IMG/VR virus record: IMGVR_UViG_2541047849_000003
Coordinates: 1-20,716 of that record
From: a virus
Lineage: Duplodnaviria > Heunggongvirae > Uroviricota > Caudoviricetes
Length of the DNA: 20,716 nucleotides
Reading direction: 5' to 3' (one strand)
Part shown: positions 3,496 to 20,716 of the stretch, piece after piece
Numbering within the stretch: the first letter of the stretch is position 1
Layout: each line of letters starts with the position of its first letter
Position numbers and translations under genes: made by a program
Notes under the pieces: generated by a model
Seen by the model: only the letters and a program-made list of their open reading frames with translations
Database searches by the model: none
What the model was told of the DNA's origin: nothing

Positions 3496-3672
3496 ATGCT
3501 TAGCCCATCCCAATCCATTCAATACCAGAAAGAAAGCGTCGAGCGGGCTTTAACGTGCGCTAACTGCGGTCAGAAGCTGCATGTGCTGGAAGTTCACGTG
3601 TGCTCAGATTGCTGCGCAGAACTGATGAGCGATCCGAATAGCTCAATGTACGAGGAAGAAGACGATGAATGA
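3496..3672 (+). CDS. Hypothetical 58-aa cysteine-rich protein (CANCGQ...CSDCC), translationally coupled to the downstream Rha gene
   Basis: ATG at 3496; its stop TGA (3670-3672) overlaps the ATG of the next gene in an ATGAATGA arrangement. Putative metal-binding Cys cluster. Confidence 0.45.
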   Translation: MLSPSQSIQYQKESVERALTCANCGQKLHVLEVHVCSDCCAELMSDPNSSMYEEEDDE

Positions 3673-4282
3673 GTTAATAAATGGCAATGCCATCAAAATG
3701 ACAAGCATTGAAATCGCTGAGTTGGTTGGTAAGCGTCATGACAATGTGAAACGTACCATCGAAACGCTGGCTAAAAATGGTGTTATCCGGCTTCCTCAAA
3801 TTGAGGATTGTGTAAGAATCAATGGGTTAGGCTTAAATCAAAGTTTTTGTGTGTATGTATTCGAAGGCGAACAAGGAAAGCGAGACAGTATTGTCGTTGT
3901 AGCCCAGTTGTCGCCGGAATTCACCGCTCGTCTTGTTGACCGTTGGCGAGAGCTTGAAGAAACTGCGGTTAATATCCCCAAAACGCTACCAGAAGCGTTG
4001 CGCCTTGCTGCTGATCTTGCTGAGCAGAAAATGCAACTGGAAAACCAGCTCGCAATTGCCGCACCTAAAGTTGAGTTTGCCGATCGAGTTGGCGAGGCCA
4101 GCGGAATTTTGATTGGAAACTTTGCAAAGGTTGTCGGTATTGGTCCAAACAAACTGTTTGCGTGGATGCGTGATCACAAAATCCTTATTGCTTCAGGTTC
4201 CCGGCGAAATGTGCCAATGCAGGAATATATGGATCGCGGCTATTTCACAGTGAAAGAAACAGCGGTCAACCAGCGAAGATAG
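3665..4282 (+). CDS. Rha-family phage regulatory protein with KilA-C/ANT-type C-terminal domain, apparently 3'-truncated
   Basis: N-terminus has the Rha hallmark IAELVGKRHDNVKRTIETL. The C-terminal region (KLFAWMRDHKILIASGSRRNVPMQEYMDRGYFTVKE) resembles the KilA-C antirepressor domain but stops about 25-30 residues earlier than such domains normally do. AGGAAG ribosome-binding site upstream. Confidence 0.7.
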   Translation: MNELINGNAIKMTSIEIAELVGKRHDNVKRTIETLAKNGVIRLPQIEDCVRINGLGLNQSFCVYVFEGEQGKRDSIVVVAQLSPEFTARLVDRWRELEETAVNIPKTLPEALRLAADLAEQKMQLENQLAIAAPKVEFADRVGEASGILIGNFAKVVGIGPNKLFAWMRDHKILIASGSRRNVPMQEYMDRGYFTVKETAVNQRR

Positions 4283-4352: not shown

Positions 4353-4955
4353 ATGCGTCAGTCTCAGAAACCCGTCGAGCAGCAGCCGGTAATCACTCAA
4401 CCACCGCGAATGCCAAAACTGGATGATGAGGACATCGGTTTCGATGAAGAAATCTATCAGCAACGCATGGCTAAGTGGGCAGAGGATAACGGAAAGTACC
4501 AGCAACAGGAGATGGCTCGCAAGCAGAAGGAGCAGGAGCTTCATGCTGCTTATCAAGAGCGATTATCCAAATATCAGCAACGTGTTAAGGCTCTCAAGGT
4601 TCCTGGCTATCAGGAAGCAGAACAGGCCGTACTCGAGGAAATCCCCATCGAGACACAAAACGCGATCCTGTTTGAGTCAGAGAAGCCGGAAATCGTTGTT
4701 CTGGCGCTCGGTCGCAACGCTGAACTGCGCAAGCAACTGGCAGAAGCTACCAACCCCGTAGCAATTGGTCGTCTGCTGGAACGTATCGAATCGAAGGCCA
4801 GAATCATGCCAAAAGCAAAAACCACGGCAGCCACAACCCCGACAGTTAAGGGGAGCAACGGCGCAGTAATCAATAACCTCGACAAACTGAAAGCCAAGGC
4901 GCTGGAAACTGGTGACTGGACGCCGTATTTCGCCGCTAAAAAGGCAAAAAAATAA
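4353..4955 (+). CDS. P22-like scaffolding protein, N-terminally truncated remnant (reading frame open from 4254)
   Basis: C-terminal region (LGRNAELRKQLAEATNPVAIGRLLERIESK...KLKAKALETGDW) resembles the coat-binding C-terminus of P22 gp8. Lies immediately upstream of the coat gene. Scaffold-like sequence continues in frame upstream of the first ATG back to 4254, with no start codon there. Confidence 0.6.
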   Translation: MRQSQKPVEQQPVITQPPRMPKLDDEDIGFDEEIYQQRMAKWAEDNGKYQQQEMARKQKEQELHAAYQERLSKYQQRVKALKVPGYQEAEQAVLEEIPIETQNAILFESEKPEIVVLALGRNAELRKQLAEATNPVAIGRLLERIESKARIMPKAKTTAATTPTVKGSNGAVINNLDKLKAKALETGDWTPYFAAKKAKK

Positions 4956-13788: not shown

Positions 13789-14781
13789 ATGACTGAAAAG
13801 AAAAGTGGCGAAGGGAAAGCTAAGGGCGGTATCGCTCGCGCAAAGTCGCTGACTAAAGAGCAGCGTTCTGAAATAGCAAAGAAAGCAGCGGCTGCAAGAT
13901 GGAAGGATAAACCATTAATTGCTACGCATAAGGGATCGTTCCAGCATGAATTCGGGATTGATGTTGAGTGCTATGTGTTAAATGATGATAACAAAACTGC
14001 CGTTATTAGCCAGAGAGGCATGGGAGAAGCGATTGGTCTTGGCGAAGGTGGCAGCAGGTTGCCAAAGTTTATTCAGGGGAAAACTATTTCTCAGTATATC
14101 GGGCATGAATTAAGGGCAAAACTTGAAAATCCTCTTATTTTTCAATACAAACAGGCGGGCACGAACACTCCAGCTAATCCTGTAATACATGGCTACGATG
14201 TAACAATATTAATTGATTTATGTCGAGCAATCTCTAATGCTAAAGCCGAAGGTAAGTTGCTTTCCAGTCAGGAAGGGATTGCTAAGCAAGCCAGAATCAT
14301 TATTGATGCATCAGCCAAGGCGGGCATTCAGGGGCTTGTTTATGCTTTGGCAGGGTATGACAGAACAAAAGAAGAGGTAATTCAAGCATATAAGCGATAT
14401 GTTGCTGAAGAGGCTCGTGAGTATGAAAGAGAGTTCACCCCTGAACTTTATGAGCATTGGTATCGTCTGTATGGTATAGACAAACCAGTTAGAGGGCGAC
14501 CATGGGCGTTTAAATATCTTACGATAGATCACATTTATTACCCATTAGCCAGAAGTGAAGGAAAGGTATTTAATTTAGCAAAAACGTCAAAAGAAGAAAA
14601 AGGCAGCAAAAACGATAAAATACACCAGTTTTTATCAGAGGTTGGAGTTAAGGCTCTTAGAACCCAAATAGGTAAGGTTACTGGTATTGCAATGGTTTCT
14701 GATACTCGAGAAGAGTATGAGAAATACATAGATGAAAAGGTTATTGGACAAAGAACCATAGACTTAAAAGATAAAGAATAA
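13789..14781 (+). CDS. Hypothetical accessory protein, probably P63C-domain family (phage regulatory or antirepressor-associated domain of unknown function)
   Basis: 330 aa. Basic N-terminal tail GGIARAKSLTKEQRSEIAKKAAAARW, then ...ECYVLNDDNKTAVISQRGMGEAIGLGEGGSRLPKF..., which matches my memory of the conserved P63C core. AT-rich codon usage unlike the flanking structural genes. Own promoter upstream and terminator downstream. Confidence 0.6.
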   Translation: MTEKKSGEGKAKGGIARAKSLTKEQRSEIAKKAAAARWKDKPLIATHKGSFQHEFGIDVECYVLNDDNKTAVISQRGMGEAIGLGEGGSRLPKFIQGKTISQYIGHELRAKLENPLIFQYKQAGTNTPANPVIHGYDVTILIDLCRAISNAKAEGKLLSSQEGIAKQARIIIDASAKAGIQGLVYALAGYDRTKEEVIQAYKRYVAEEAREYEREFTPELYEHWYRLYGIDKPVRGRPWAFKYLTIDHIYYPLARSEGKVFNLAKTSKEEKGSKNDKIHQFLSEVGVKALRTQIGKVTGIAMVSDTREEYEKYIDEKVIGQRTIDLKDKE

Positions 14782-15183: not shown

Positions 15184-15187
15184 CTAA
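15184..15187. repeat. IS5 target-site duplication CTAA, left copy (right copy at 16383-16386)
   Basis: Identical 4-bp CTAA immediately flanks both inverted-repeat ends of the IS element. IS5 is known to duplicate a YTAR tetramer. Confidence 0.8.
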
Positions 15188-16382
<1,195 letters not shown>

Positions 16383-16569
16383 CTAACGGTAACAGGGAGT
16401 GACTTAAGAAAGTTATACGCAGTAAAGCCAGCGGCAGTTTCCCCTCCCTGACTTGATATATGGATATTTAATTCAGTTGCGCCTTGAGATAATGCGGTGA
16501 GACAGTGGTTCTGAAGTTGCCCAACAGTGGCAGTGTTAACGGGGCATAAGAAATGAATTGTGTGCAGCA

Positions 16570-18250: not shown

Positions 18251-18269
18251 CAGATAACCAACGCAACGA

Positions 18270-18292
18270 CCCAGCTTCGGCTGGGTTTTTTT
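18270..18292 (+). terminator. Rho-independent terminator after ant
   Basis: CCCAGC-TTCG-GCTGGG hairpin followed by TTTTTTT. Confidence 0.7.
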
Positions 18293-18349
18293 ATGCCCAA
18301 AATTCACCGTAGCTACGCTGCGGCGATTCCTTGTATCTGGAGTAATGAA

Positions 18350-20716
18350 ATGTCAGATATCACCGCAAATGTTGTGGTAAGCATGCCTTCGCAACTCTTC
18401 ACTATGGCTCGTTCTTTTAAAGCCGTAGCCAATGGCAAAATTTATATCGGTAAAATTGACACTGACCCGGTAAGTCCAGAAAACCAGATTCAGGTTTATG
18501 TAGAGAACGAAGACGGCTCTCATGTTCCTGTTTTGCAACCAATCATCATTAACGCTGCTGGATATCCGGTATATAACGGGCAGATTGCCAAATTCGTAAC
18601 TGTGCAAGGCCATTCTATGGCTGTATATGATGCACATGGCACTAAGCAGTTTTATTTTCCAAATGTATTAAAATACGATCCTGATCAACTTAGGGAAGAG
18701 ATTTTTTCTGACCGTATGCTGTTAATTACGCCACAGCATTATGGGGCGAAAGGTGACGGTGTTAACGATGATACGGTGGCATTTATTGCAGCAGCAAATG
18801 CTCTTGGAGATGGTGGAAAGTTATATATTCCAACTGGAACATATAATTTAATTGGACCAGTTAATATACCACCAGTGAATATGTGTGGCGATGGACAGGG
18901 TAAAACGGTTATTGTGTTTGATAATACCACATCACCAAAAGATGGATTTGTTTTCGCTGCACCAACTAAGCATGATGTTGAATTTGGTTTAAGTCACCTT
19001 ACAATTAAAAGCAAAGGCGGGAATGGCGCTAATGCCATATATACCCCAAGAGGTGTCGGGCTTAATCATCTAAGGCCAAAACCAACATTTAGATTTTTAT
19101 CTTTCTGTTCTGAGACTGCAAATATTGATTCTGATGAATTCGCACAGAAGTACGGTTGGGAATGGTCTTTTAACTGTGGTGATAGTTGGCAGTTCACAAT
19201 CGAACGCATTGATGCTGTTGGATGTTATCAGATAGCCAAAAGTTATAATGAACAGTTCCTTGATGGATTCATTCGCACCGCTCCAGAAGAAGGGATTTTA
19301 TCAATGCGTGTGAGTGATATCACAACGCATAATGTTGCAAATTTTTTTGAAATTAAGCAGAAGACATATTTTACATTGCTTAATATTGATGCCGCCAAGG
19401 CATTACGAGGCATTTACGACGCTGATGATCGTATATTTGAAACGAATCGTTATGCTTATGGTGAATGTATATGCACAAATGTTGGTATTAATGCCCAACT
19501 TGAACCAGTACGGCTGGATAACAGATTCCTGCTCATCATGAATGGTATGTTTATTCACCGCGCAGCAAAAGGTTACGATCATGGTCTGGAATGGGTTGGT
19601 CTTAAGCTTAGTCGTGCTCGCGTGTGTTCATTCCAGGGAATTGAGATCGGCACTGCCAGAGGGTATTCAGGGACTAAGAAAGGGATTGTTCTTGACGCCG
19701 GTGATGCAAATAACTTTACCAATGTAACTTTTGGTCTGCTTGATGTGTGCGCACAGATTGGCGATTCCAATTCACAGTATGGTGCCAACTTTGCAACATG
19801 CTTTAATAATGTGAGCATTAATGCTGACACCGTATTGTTATTCGATTTGCAGCTGTGCAGAAATTTCCATTGTGATGGATACGGAGCATCTTCTGCCTAC
19901 ACTCTTCAGCAATTCCATAGGAACAGTGATGACACAAGCAATACTTATACATTTAGTAATGTAGGTAAACACAATCTCTACACTGACAACTCGCTGCATC
20001 TACATAATTCTGCTTCGCTGGAGAACGGGAAGAATATACGTATTGATACACGAAACGGATTATCTGTTAGCACTCAAACAGATACTGGTTCCGCAGGAAA
20101 TAACTTCCTTATAATTCGTAGGACTGGTGTTGATATAGACAGTTTTGAGTTAAGGACTCGCAGTACAGCAGGTGCATATACATATATTAATACACCTGAA
20201 ACTCATTTTTCTGGCCTTATAAAACCAACTGTTGATAATGTTAACTCAAACGGAACATCAGCATTTCGATGGTCACAGGTATACGCTGGTACTGGCAGTA
20301 TCAACACGTCGAATGAAGAGCTGAAATTGCGTATTGAGGCTGACGAGAAAACAACAGAATCAGAGCGTCTTGCTGCGCTTGAAATAAAGGAAAATATCTG
20401 GAGGTTTAAATTTAAAGATGCAGTAAAGATCAAGAGTGATGGCGCTCGGATTCATTTCGGTGTTGGTGCACAAACTGTAGGTAATATTCTCAGAAAATAC
20501 GGTCTTGACCCTAATAACTATGCGTTCTGGTGTTATGATGAATGGGATGATATTTATGCTCCAGAGGTATTGATTAGGAGTGTTAAAAACAATGAAACAG
20601 GAGAGTGGTACGACGAGGAATATTACACAGGAAGGCAGGTTATTATTAAACCTGCTGGCTATCAGTATGGTATCAGATACGAGGAGCTTATGATGTTTAT
20701 TCTTATGTTTATTTAA
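18350..20716 (+). CDS. Tailspike protein: P22-type N-terminal head-binding domain, beta-helix depolymerase-like central domain, C-terminal intramolecular-chaperone-like domain
   Basis: 788 aa from the ATG at 18350 (GGAG upstream). N-terminal ~113 aa ([11 protein letters not shown]...[18 protein letters not shown]...[12 protein letters not shown]...NVLKYDPDQ) match the P22 gp9 head-binding domain. Central [19 protein letters not shown] is a pectate-lyase-type beta-helix motif. C-terminus (...[25 protein letters not shown]...) resembles peptidase S74-type chaperone domains. Stop TAA at 20714-20716. Confidence 0.85.

Follow-up and report, generated by a model that had tools for sequence, protein, structure and literature searches.

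A modular P22-like prophage tailspike with an exchangeable receptor-binding cassette, a predicted self-removing chaperone domain and a probable capsule receptor

Introduction

The tailspikes of phages P22 (gp9), Sf6 (gp14) and HK620 are O-antigen endoglycosidases lacking a cleaved C-terminal chaperone domain. A P22-type virion anchor joined to other modules is known from the spike of the K1-specific P22-like prophage CUS-3 (siaK1, CP000711), whose relation by module swap to the spike of the T7-like phage K1F has been documented (PMC5380687). The tailspike gene described in this work closes a stretch of 20,716 nucleotides (hereafter, the window), i.e., positions 1 to 20,716 of the IMG/VR virus record IMGVR_UViG_2541047849_000003 (Caudoviricetes), the stop codon of the gene being the final triplet of the window.

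The comparison with CUS-3 reveals likeness at different levels. The P22-type head-binding domains of the two spikes are near-identical through the sequence DPDQLR; the C-terminal chaperone domains are 31% identical (E 3e-14) and have a Ser-x4-Lys site in common; the spike gene is located after ant in both cases; an O-acetyltransferase gene lies downstream of it in CUS-3 and in the relatives of the prophage under investigation; and the swap partner is a T7-like phage, namely K1F for CUS-3 and PSK1 for the spike described here. However, the body of the CUS-3 spike is a GH58 sialidase, whereas that of the present spike is an unrelated β-helix of the pectate-lyase fold; moreover, the acetyltransferase gene of the relatives is on the opposite strand and does not carry neuO-type heptanucleotide repeats. 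Chaperone domains matching the one found here are also embedded in the K1F endosialidase (3gw6), in the L-shaped fibre pb1 of T5 (4uw8) and in a fibre of Klebsiella phage Kp7 (7y5s). These three domains share with the present one the scissile Thr-Ser pair, a Lys five residues on, and an upstream Asp and Arg; the mature parts to which they are attached differ widely, with a sialidase in the first case, a lectin domain known as the "bullet" in the second and a fibre in the third. In the present spike, the self-cleavage is a prediction. As for the P22 gp9, Sf6 gp14 and HK620 spikes, no sequence similarity to this spike can be detected after residue ~120.

On the whole, the gene is likely to encode a modular, homotrimeric tailspike of a P22-like (Lederbergvirus-type) podovirus, with swappable parts, a chaperone that removes itself and a capsule as receptor. 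According to the proposed mechanism, residues 1-113 would dock the spike on the gp4/gp10 tail hub; residues 130-613 (β-helix and small distal domain) would bind a host surface polysaccharide and most likely cleave it; residues 614-653 would form a trimeric stalk; and residues 654-788 would nucleate the folding of the trimer and then remove themselves through a cut of the T653-S654 bond mediated by Ser654 and Lys659, leaving a mature subunit of 71.8 kDa. The body and the chaperone would represent a cassette passing between unrelated phage types through recombination at the linker, and a sub-cassette within the helix (residues 334-613) would be exchanged too.

Since an anchor combined with a depolymerase that can be exchanged and with a chaperone that cleaves itself off is already known from CUS-3 and K1F, the general understanding of tailspikes is left unchanged. 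What is new is a prediction of the receptor that can be put to the test, namely a rare capsule locus of group 2, together with exchange junctions mapped to the residue, in a natural case of one cassette mounted on three phage chassis, nested internal swap included.

Domain organization of the tailspike

The gene encodes a precursor of 87.8 kDa, identical to the NCBI entry WP_021547416.1 ("phage tailspike protein"); the public genomes with this spike correspond to about 300 cluster members. A preliminary description, made on the letters of the window alone, had placed the gene at 18350-20716, which proved exact. The open reading frame (ORF) and the features embedded in it are the following:

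18350-20716, + strand: complete tailspike ORF, 788 amino acids (ATG at 18350, TAA at 20714-20716)
18350-18688, + strand: P22/Sf6-type head-binding (virion anchor) domain, residues 1-113 (Pfam PF09008, PDB, Foldseek)
18689-18736, + strand: linker of 16 residues, residues 114-129, between two mosaic junctions
18737-19969, + strand: right-handed parallel β-helix, residues 130-~540; receptor-binding, presumed depolymerase body
18743-18775, + strand: pectate-lyase-type N-terminal cap motif (11 residues), residues 132-142, inside the Pect-lyase_RHGA_epim match
19349-20188, + strand: internal cassette, residues 334-613, in AH21A060 and AVS0578 exchanged for a counterpart of 57% amino acid identity
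19970-20188, + strand: small all-β domain following the helix, residues ~541-613 (from the predicted secondary structure)
20189-20308, + strand: stalk before the cleavage site, residues 614-653; weak End_tail_spike match, presumably an interdigitated triple β-helix
20306-20326, + strand: predicted autoproteolytic site T653|S654 with Lys659 (INT|SNEELK), from the alignment to 4uw8 and 3gw6
20309-20713, + strand: intramolecular chaperone domain, residues 654-788, 16.0 kDa, predicted to be released (sequence and fold matches)

The first ~113 residues had been described as P22 gp9-like, and this was fully borne out. They match the Pfam family Head_binding (PF09008) over its full length (E 2.5e-65, 218 bits, with a cut-off of 24), they retrieve the P22 and Sf6 head-binding domains from the PDB (7sg7, 8tvr and 1lkt), and they are 74% identical to P22 gp9, 88% to Sf6 gp14 and 89% to HK620. 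The likeness to other P22-like tailspikes ends after NVLKYDPDQ (residues 105-113, nt 18662-18688), as had been noticed beforehand, and the megablast matches to phages stop at gene nt 314-342. Since this phage DNA homology ends there and the homology with an epsilon15-type spike, discussed below, starts only at about gene nt 389, the linker is located between two recombination joints. In the AlphaFold2 (AF2) model, the confidence is low in the linker region, with a predicted local distance difference test (pLDDT) score below 50 at residues 108-124.

The preliminary description had also claimed that codon usage becomes markedly AT-rich from about position 18690; this part did not hold, since the base composition does not shift at the linker. 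The GC content is 0.410 for residues 1-113 vs 0.400 for the rest, and that of third codon positions (GC3) is 0.363 vs 0.317 (Fisher p = 0.33); a change-point scan of GC and GC3 along the tailspike gene returned no significant break, the best log-likelihood gain being only 1.8. It is the whole gene, anchor included, that is AT-rich relative to the upstream virion genes (GC 0.47-0.53).

Concerning the body, both a search for β-helix families and a structure prediction had been proposed, and the two agree. Residues 130-204 match Pfam Pect-lyase_RHGA_epim (PF12708) with 38.3 bits, above the cut-off of 27, and the pectate-lyase-type motif already spotted in the body falls within this match. The AF2 model (monomer, built on 30 homologues, mean pLDDT 80) displays a long parallel β-helix that spans residues 130 to ~540, with pLDDT >90 over most of its length, followed by the small all-β domain with pLDDT 75-80. 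The spike thus possesses a β-helix provided with the N-terminal cap motif, i.e., the combination by which a depolymerase of the pectate-lyase fold is recognized.

Three more specific assignments were considered and discarded. The RefSeq name of the epsilon15-type copies is "glycosyl hydrolase family 28-related protein"; nevertheless, membership in GH28 (whose motifs are taken as NTD, G/QDD, GHG and RIK) is not borne out, since no Glyco_hydro_28 match was found at E <= 1 and all four motifs are absent. A GH58 endosialidase can be discarded because the body is a β-helix, and only the stalk of End_tail_spike is matched, and weakly (last 40 profile positions, 20 bits vs a cut-off of 25). Lastly, colanic acid as the target is an idea deriving from the name of PHROG 8280, whose match is limited to the anchor and the cap (residues 1-193).

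The C-terminal domain and its predicted self-cleavage

The last 135 residues match solved chaperone domains in a phmmer search (7y5s, E 2e-20; T5 pb1 4uw8, E 1e-14; endoNF 3gw6, E 1.5e-10). In the AF2 model they form a mixed α/β domain, which Foldseek pairs with 3gw6 and 4uw8 at probability 1.0 (E ~1e-7). The chaperone-like nature previously attributed to the last ~130 residues is therefore corroborated by sequence and fold, although the Peptidase_S74 profile that had been proposed as a check scored only 19.5 bits, below the curated cut-off of 22. For this reason, the assignment is founded on the similarity to PDB entries in sequence and fold, together with the conservation of the catalytic residues. 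Homologues of the same cassette do exceed the S74 cut-off (e.g., PSK1 with 42.8 bits and P0019 with 58.3 bits).

In T5 pb1, roles in self-cleavage have been assigned to D1239, R1250, T1263, S1264 and K1269 (PMC4690869), and these residues correspond, respectively, to D629, R640, T653, S654 and K659 of the present spike. D629 and R640, the upstream "folding sensor" Asp and Arg, lie in the stalk; S654 is aligned with the position changed from Ser to Ala in the uncleavable mutants used for crystallisation, and K659 with the catalytic Lys of 4uw8 and 3gw6. Among the aligned homologues, 26/27 retain the Ser, 26/27 the Lys and 27/29 the Thr. On these grounds, cleavage is predicted to occur at T653-S654, and would yield a mature chain of residues 1-653 (71.8 kDa) plus a released chaperone of 16.0 kDa.

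In the AF2 monomer, residues 622-654 are poorly modelled (stalk pLDDT <50), as expected where a segment folds only as an interdigitated trimer.

It might be argued that the C-terminal domain is not cut off but stays in place, serving the mature spike permanently in trimerisation or in sugar binding. The S74 score under the cut-off would fit such an idea, and so would the residue following the Ser, which is Asn in this spike but Asp in 18/27 homologues. Nonetheless, the same Asn occurs in the other 9/27, the spike has each of the five residues for which a catalytic part is proposed in T5 pb1, and the domains matched in both sequence and fold have been experimentally shown to cleave themselves; retention of the domain is thus very improbable, and a chaperone that is cut off appears by far the better explanation.

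Exchange of the receptor-binding module

The distribution of the spike was analysed in 5,426 complete genomes of Escherichia coli and in 50,697 phage records. Full-length P22-type copies are harbored by nine assemblies, seven of which carry a gene at 96-98% identity, while AH21A060 and AVS0578 carry an internal variant. The stretch from gene nt 389 to 2367 alone was found in six further records (five strains), inside an 860-amino-acid protein of an epsilon15-like (Uetakevirus-type) prophage adjoining yfgI. This second spike (e.g., WP_370144331.1 in NRZ14408) is 96-98% identical at the nucleotide level from gene nt 389 to the stop codon, and at least 99% identical over nt 1000-2367; on the other hand, an N-terminus of ~200 amino acids (MTVSTEVDHNEYTGNGVTTSFPYTF...), without any Pfam match, replaces the P22 anchor, and the prophage is a different one, with holin and endolysin genes downstream of the spike. 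A base-by-base comparison places the start of the homology at gene nt ~389 and the junction at residue 130 (HYGAKGDG).

In the phage collection, P22-like spikes match by the anchor alone, and the sole homologue of the β-helix, and the only full-body match, belongs to the T7-like Escherichia phage PSK1 (PP541512), whose spike is 56% identical at the amino acid level over residues 131-788, chaperone included. In PSK1, which is lytic and has the spike in the gp17 position, the N-terminus consists of a T7 tail-fibre adaptor plus Tail_spike_N instead of the P22 anchor. A search of the literature for the receptor of PSK1 yielded no paper, and nothing usable on the serotypes of host strains. Remoter homologues of the cassette are preceded by P2-type, TSP1-type or Mtd-type N-termini, or by an N-terminal peptide as short as 26-41 residues.

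The same body and chaperone therefore stand behind P22-type, epsilon15-type and T7-type N-termini, and the exchange of the receptor module at the linker, which had been deduced from a single gene, is seen directly here and goes beyond inference. In addition, a chaperone domain is indeed matched, and a collinear alignment is obtained with no known P22-like tailspike; either of these findings, if reversed, would have spoken against a chimera.

The comparison with the epsilon15-type copy also discloses a nested mosaic, with 31/409 mismatches in nt 392-800 vs 12/1567 in nt 801-2367 (Fisher p 3e-13). A further exchange, internal to the helix, concerns the cassette of residues 334-613: the variant spikes of AH21A060 (L003 3001-5367) and AVS0578 have the same gene length as the present one, and both flanks of the exchanged segment are ~97-100% identical.

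Some genomes contain more than one copy of the spike body. NRZ14408 harbors two prophages with the same receptor-binding body, one epsilon15-like (L002 11397-13979) and the other P22-like (L001 16467-18833), and two or three copies of the spike body are present in each of GF4, TUM9803 and 2018-10-1CC. In Br_112_kylling, whose genome is devoid of the capsule locus described below, an IS4-family element has split the epsilon15-type spike gene (NZ_CP182371.1 2182767-2185372).

The receptor: O-antigen or capsule

The receptor was approached by asking what the carriers of the spike share, on the assumption that the spike of a prophage matches the surface of the host that was once infected. The O loci differ among the carriers: O7 in NRZ14408, O6 in AR_0085 and an rmlBDAC-wzx-glf type in EC17CM13. 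With a composite query made up of the spike body and 400 nt of the O7 wzy gene, the latter was found in only 2/12 carrier strains (NRZ14408 and Br_112). A single O-serogroup as the receptor can thus be discarded.

In NRZ14408, the capsule locus (kps) is of group 2, and its serotype-specific region 2 consists of two genes (L010 18613-23230). Both are annotated only as "hypothetical proteins". The first encodes a protein of 1169 amino acids that contains a ribosyltransferase/HAD module resembling Bcs3 (PDB 8a0c, E 4e-28), the match with Bcs3 of Haemophilus influenzae type b being confined to the ribosyltransferase/HAD part; the N-terminal 420 amino acids have no match in the PDB or Pfam. The second product, of 329 amino acids, is α/β-hydrolase/TPR-like. 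Such a ribosyltransferase/phosphatase module points to a ribose-containing K antigen rather than to an O-antigen.

This region 2 is rare, being found in 22 of the 5,426 genomes, O25b strains of sequence type 131 (ST131) among them. It is nevertheless harbored by 11/14 carrier assemblies, corresponding to 9/12 strains, including all eight strains with a P22-type spike and, among them, both strains with the internal variant. For the association between spike and capsule locus, the Fisher test gives p 9e-26, and still 2e-21 when duplicate strains are merged. Moreover, the carrier prophages occupy at least four chromosomal sites (ybhC/ybhB, torT, dacD and one other) and differ in the neighbouring immI genes, so that the association is not explained by one inherited lysogeny. 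The presence of one rare kps locus in 8/8 P22-type strains, together with the variety of insertion sites, suggests that the receptor is probably that capsule, and not the O-antigen. As a side observation, the two hosts of the internal-variant spike still have this same capsule locus.

The spike might instead be an ordinary endoglycosidase specific for the O-antigen, like those of P22, Sf6 and HK620, and host lineage would then have produced the capsule association as a by-product. It is well established that characterised P22-like and epsilon15-like spikes mostly target O-antigens (PMC10408124); in addition, three carriers are without the capsule locus, and an acetyltransferase beside the spike also fits O-antigen seroconversion. 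However, O7, O6 and third-O-locus hosts contain bodies whose distal 1.37 kb is at least 99% identical, and the carriers have no O type in common, yet nine of the 12 strains share one rare K locus; an O-antigen receptor is hence regarded as unlikely.

The attribution to a capsule is, in turn, not free from difficulties, and the following points weigh against it or against the broader interpretation of the spike given above, in addition to the S74 score already discussed. Three epsilon15-type carriers (AR_0085, EC17CM13 and Br_112) are without the capsule locus; AR_0085 has a K1 (neu) locus, and the spike gene of Br_112 is the one interrupted by the IS4-family element. The test of the capsule association came only after the failure of O7, and used a genome collection of unknown phylogenetic structure. 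The flanks of the source contig of the window (KE701198.1) stop short of the kps locus, which leaves the capsule type of the window's own genome outside the association. The helix contains conserved acidic residues (D347, D357, D360, E364, E372, D410 and D449), but catalytic residues could not be assigned in it, its structural neighbours (lyases, hydrolases and epimerases) being all at most 16% identical. Finally, the spike of the window resides in a prophage remnant without portal, terminase and lysis genes and without the acetyltransferase. The three exceptions can be explained by capsule switching after lysogeny; even so, the capsule attribution falls short of proof.

The name of the putative K antigen was also considered. 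In a study on the K13 polymerase KrkA (WP_001336789), a homologue in ST131 was reported, and K19 or K97 was tentatively suggested for it (PMC12887879). The protein cited for that homologue, HAI7522068.1, is not among the 15 cluster members listed, and K19/K97 is therefore only a tentative name for the present kps locus. It is conceivable, and here tentatively proposed, that the spike, with the acetyltransferase in most relatives, forms a CUS-3-like capsule-directed cassette for a group 2 K antigen of the Kdo/ribose type.

If the capsule assignment is true, the spike would serve as a ready reagent to type or decapsulate bacteria of an E. coli K type that is found also in ST131 and is without a known depolymerase. 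It would then be the first sequence-defined depolymerase for that capsule, common to P22-like, epsilon15-like and, more distantly, T7-like phages. Spikes common to several O-serogroups would likewise become explicable by K-antigen targeting, as has been speculated (PMC10408124).

Gene start and prophage context

The remaining features of the window concern the start of the tailspike gene and the prophage in which it is embedded:

18268-18294, + strand: intrinsic terminator closing the antirepressor gene, upstream of the tailspike gene (GACCCAGCTTCGGCTGGGTT then T-run)
18339-18342, + strand: Shine-Dalgarno sequence GGAG, 8 nt before the ATG at 18350 (read from the sequence)
1-1284, - strand: ybhC (the window starts inside the gene)
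1331-1345: lambda att core GCTTTTTTATACTAA, with a second copy ~430 nt past the window end
1419-2489, - strand: lambda-type integrase
3665-4282: Rha/KilAC antirepressor gene, corresponding to a nin-region gene of phage_14408_1
4353-4955: truncated scaffold gene (C-terminal two-thirds; profile positions 144-293 of 303)
13789-14781: P63C-domain protein, 330 amino acids, between gp16 and the immI region
15188-16382: complete IS5, 1195 bp, GC 0.55, with a 326-amino-acid transposase on the - strand, in the immI region upstream of mnt/arc

From the ATG at 18350, the protein opens with MSDITANVV, a P22 gp9-like start. A longer ORF from the ATG at 18293 was discarded as the real start, since that codon sits within the T-run of the upstream terminator, whose part preceding the T-run spans 18268-18287 (one site found vs 0.2 expected in shuffled sequences).

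After the scaffold, the genes follow the order coat, gp4, gp10, gp26, gp14, gp7, gp20, gp16, IS5, arc/mnt, ant and spike. The spike is hence the last gene of the P22-type virion module, after mnt/arc/ant and beside the att site, in the same order as in phage_14408_1 and CUS-3. IS5 is flanked by a target duplication, CTAA, at 15184-15187 and 16383-16386. The truncated scaffold, joined to the upstream Rha/KilAC gene, indicates a large internal deletion. Past the window, contig KE701198.1 continues for 508 nt containing the second att core (L017 8368-8875), followed by ybhB and the bio operon; the position of this att core just beyond the window identifies the element as a ~19.8-kb remnant at attB-lambda, between ybhC and ybhB. 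The ~19.8-kb element contains no gene for portal, terminase, lysis, replication or immunity, and the prophage is a remnant unable to make virions on its own.

The gene might then be a functionless relic in this genome, its ORF seemingly intact but left behind in a prophage under decay and no longer taking part in infection. The size of the element, the truncated scaffold, the IS5 insertion and the missing gene groups all agree with this, whereas the ORF is full-length and intact, with only 10 residues differing from the copy in the apparently complete phage_14408_1, and a helper P22-like phage could recombine with the spike or use it. The chances for and against a relic appear balanced; the question concerns the present use of the gene rather than the identity of the protein.

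In five of six related P22-like prophages, the spike is followed at a distance of 20 nt by a gene for a hexapeptide-repeat (CatB-like) O-acetyltransferase, which runs on the opposite strand and takes the place that neuO has in CUS-3:

L001 18853-19509, strand opposite to the spike: O-acetyltransferase
L003 5387-6043, strand opposite to the spike: O-acetyltransferase
L013 6387-6992, strand opposite to the spike: O-acetyltransferase
L015 6372-7028, strand opposite to the spike: O-acetyltransferase
L016 6339-6995, strand opposite to the spike: O-acetyltransferase

The gene is absent after the spike in 2018-10-1CC and in the source genome of the window. With phase variation in mind, the neuO-type heptanucleotide repeats were sought in the acetyltransferase genes of the relatives, and none were found. 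In 2018-10-1CC, a homologue of the P63C-domain protein is located directly upstream of the spike, in the place of ant.

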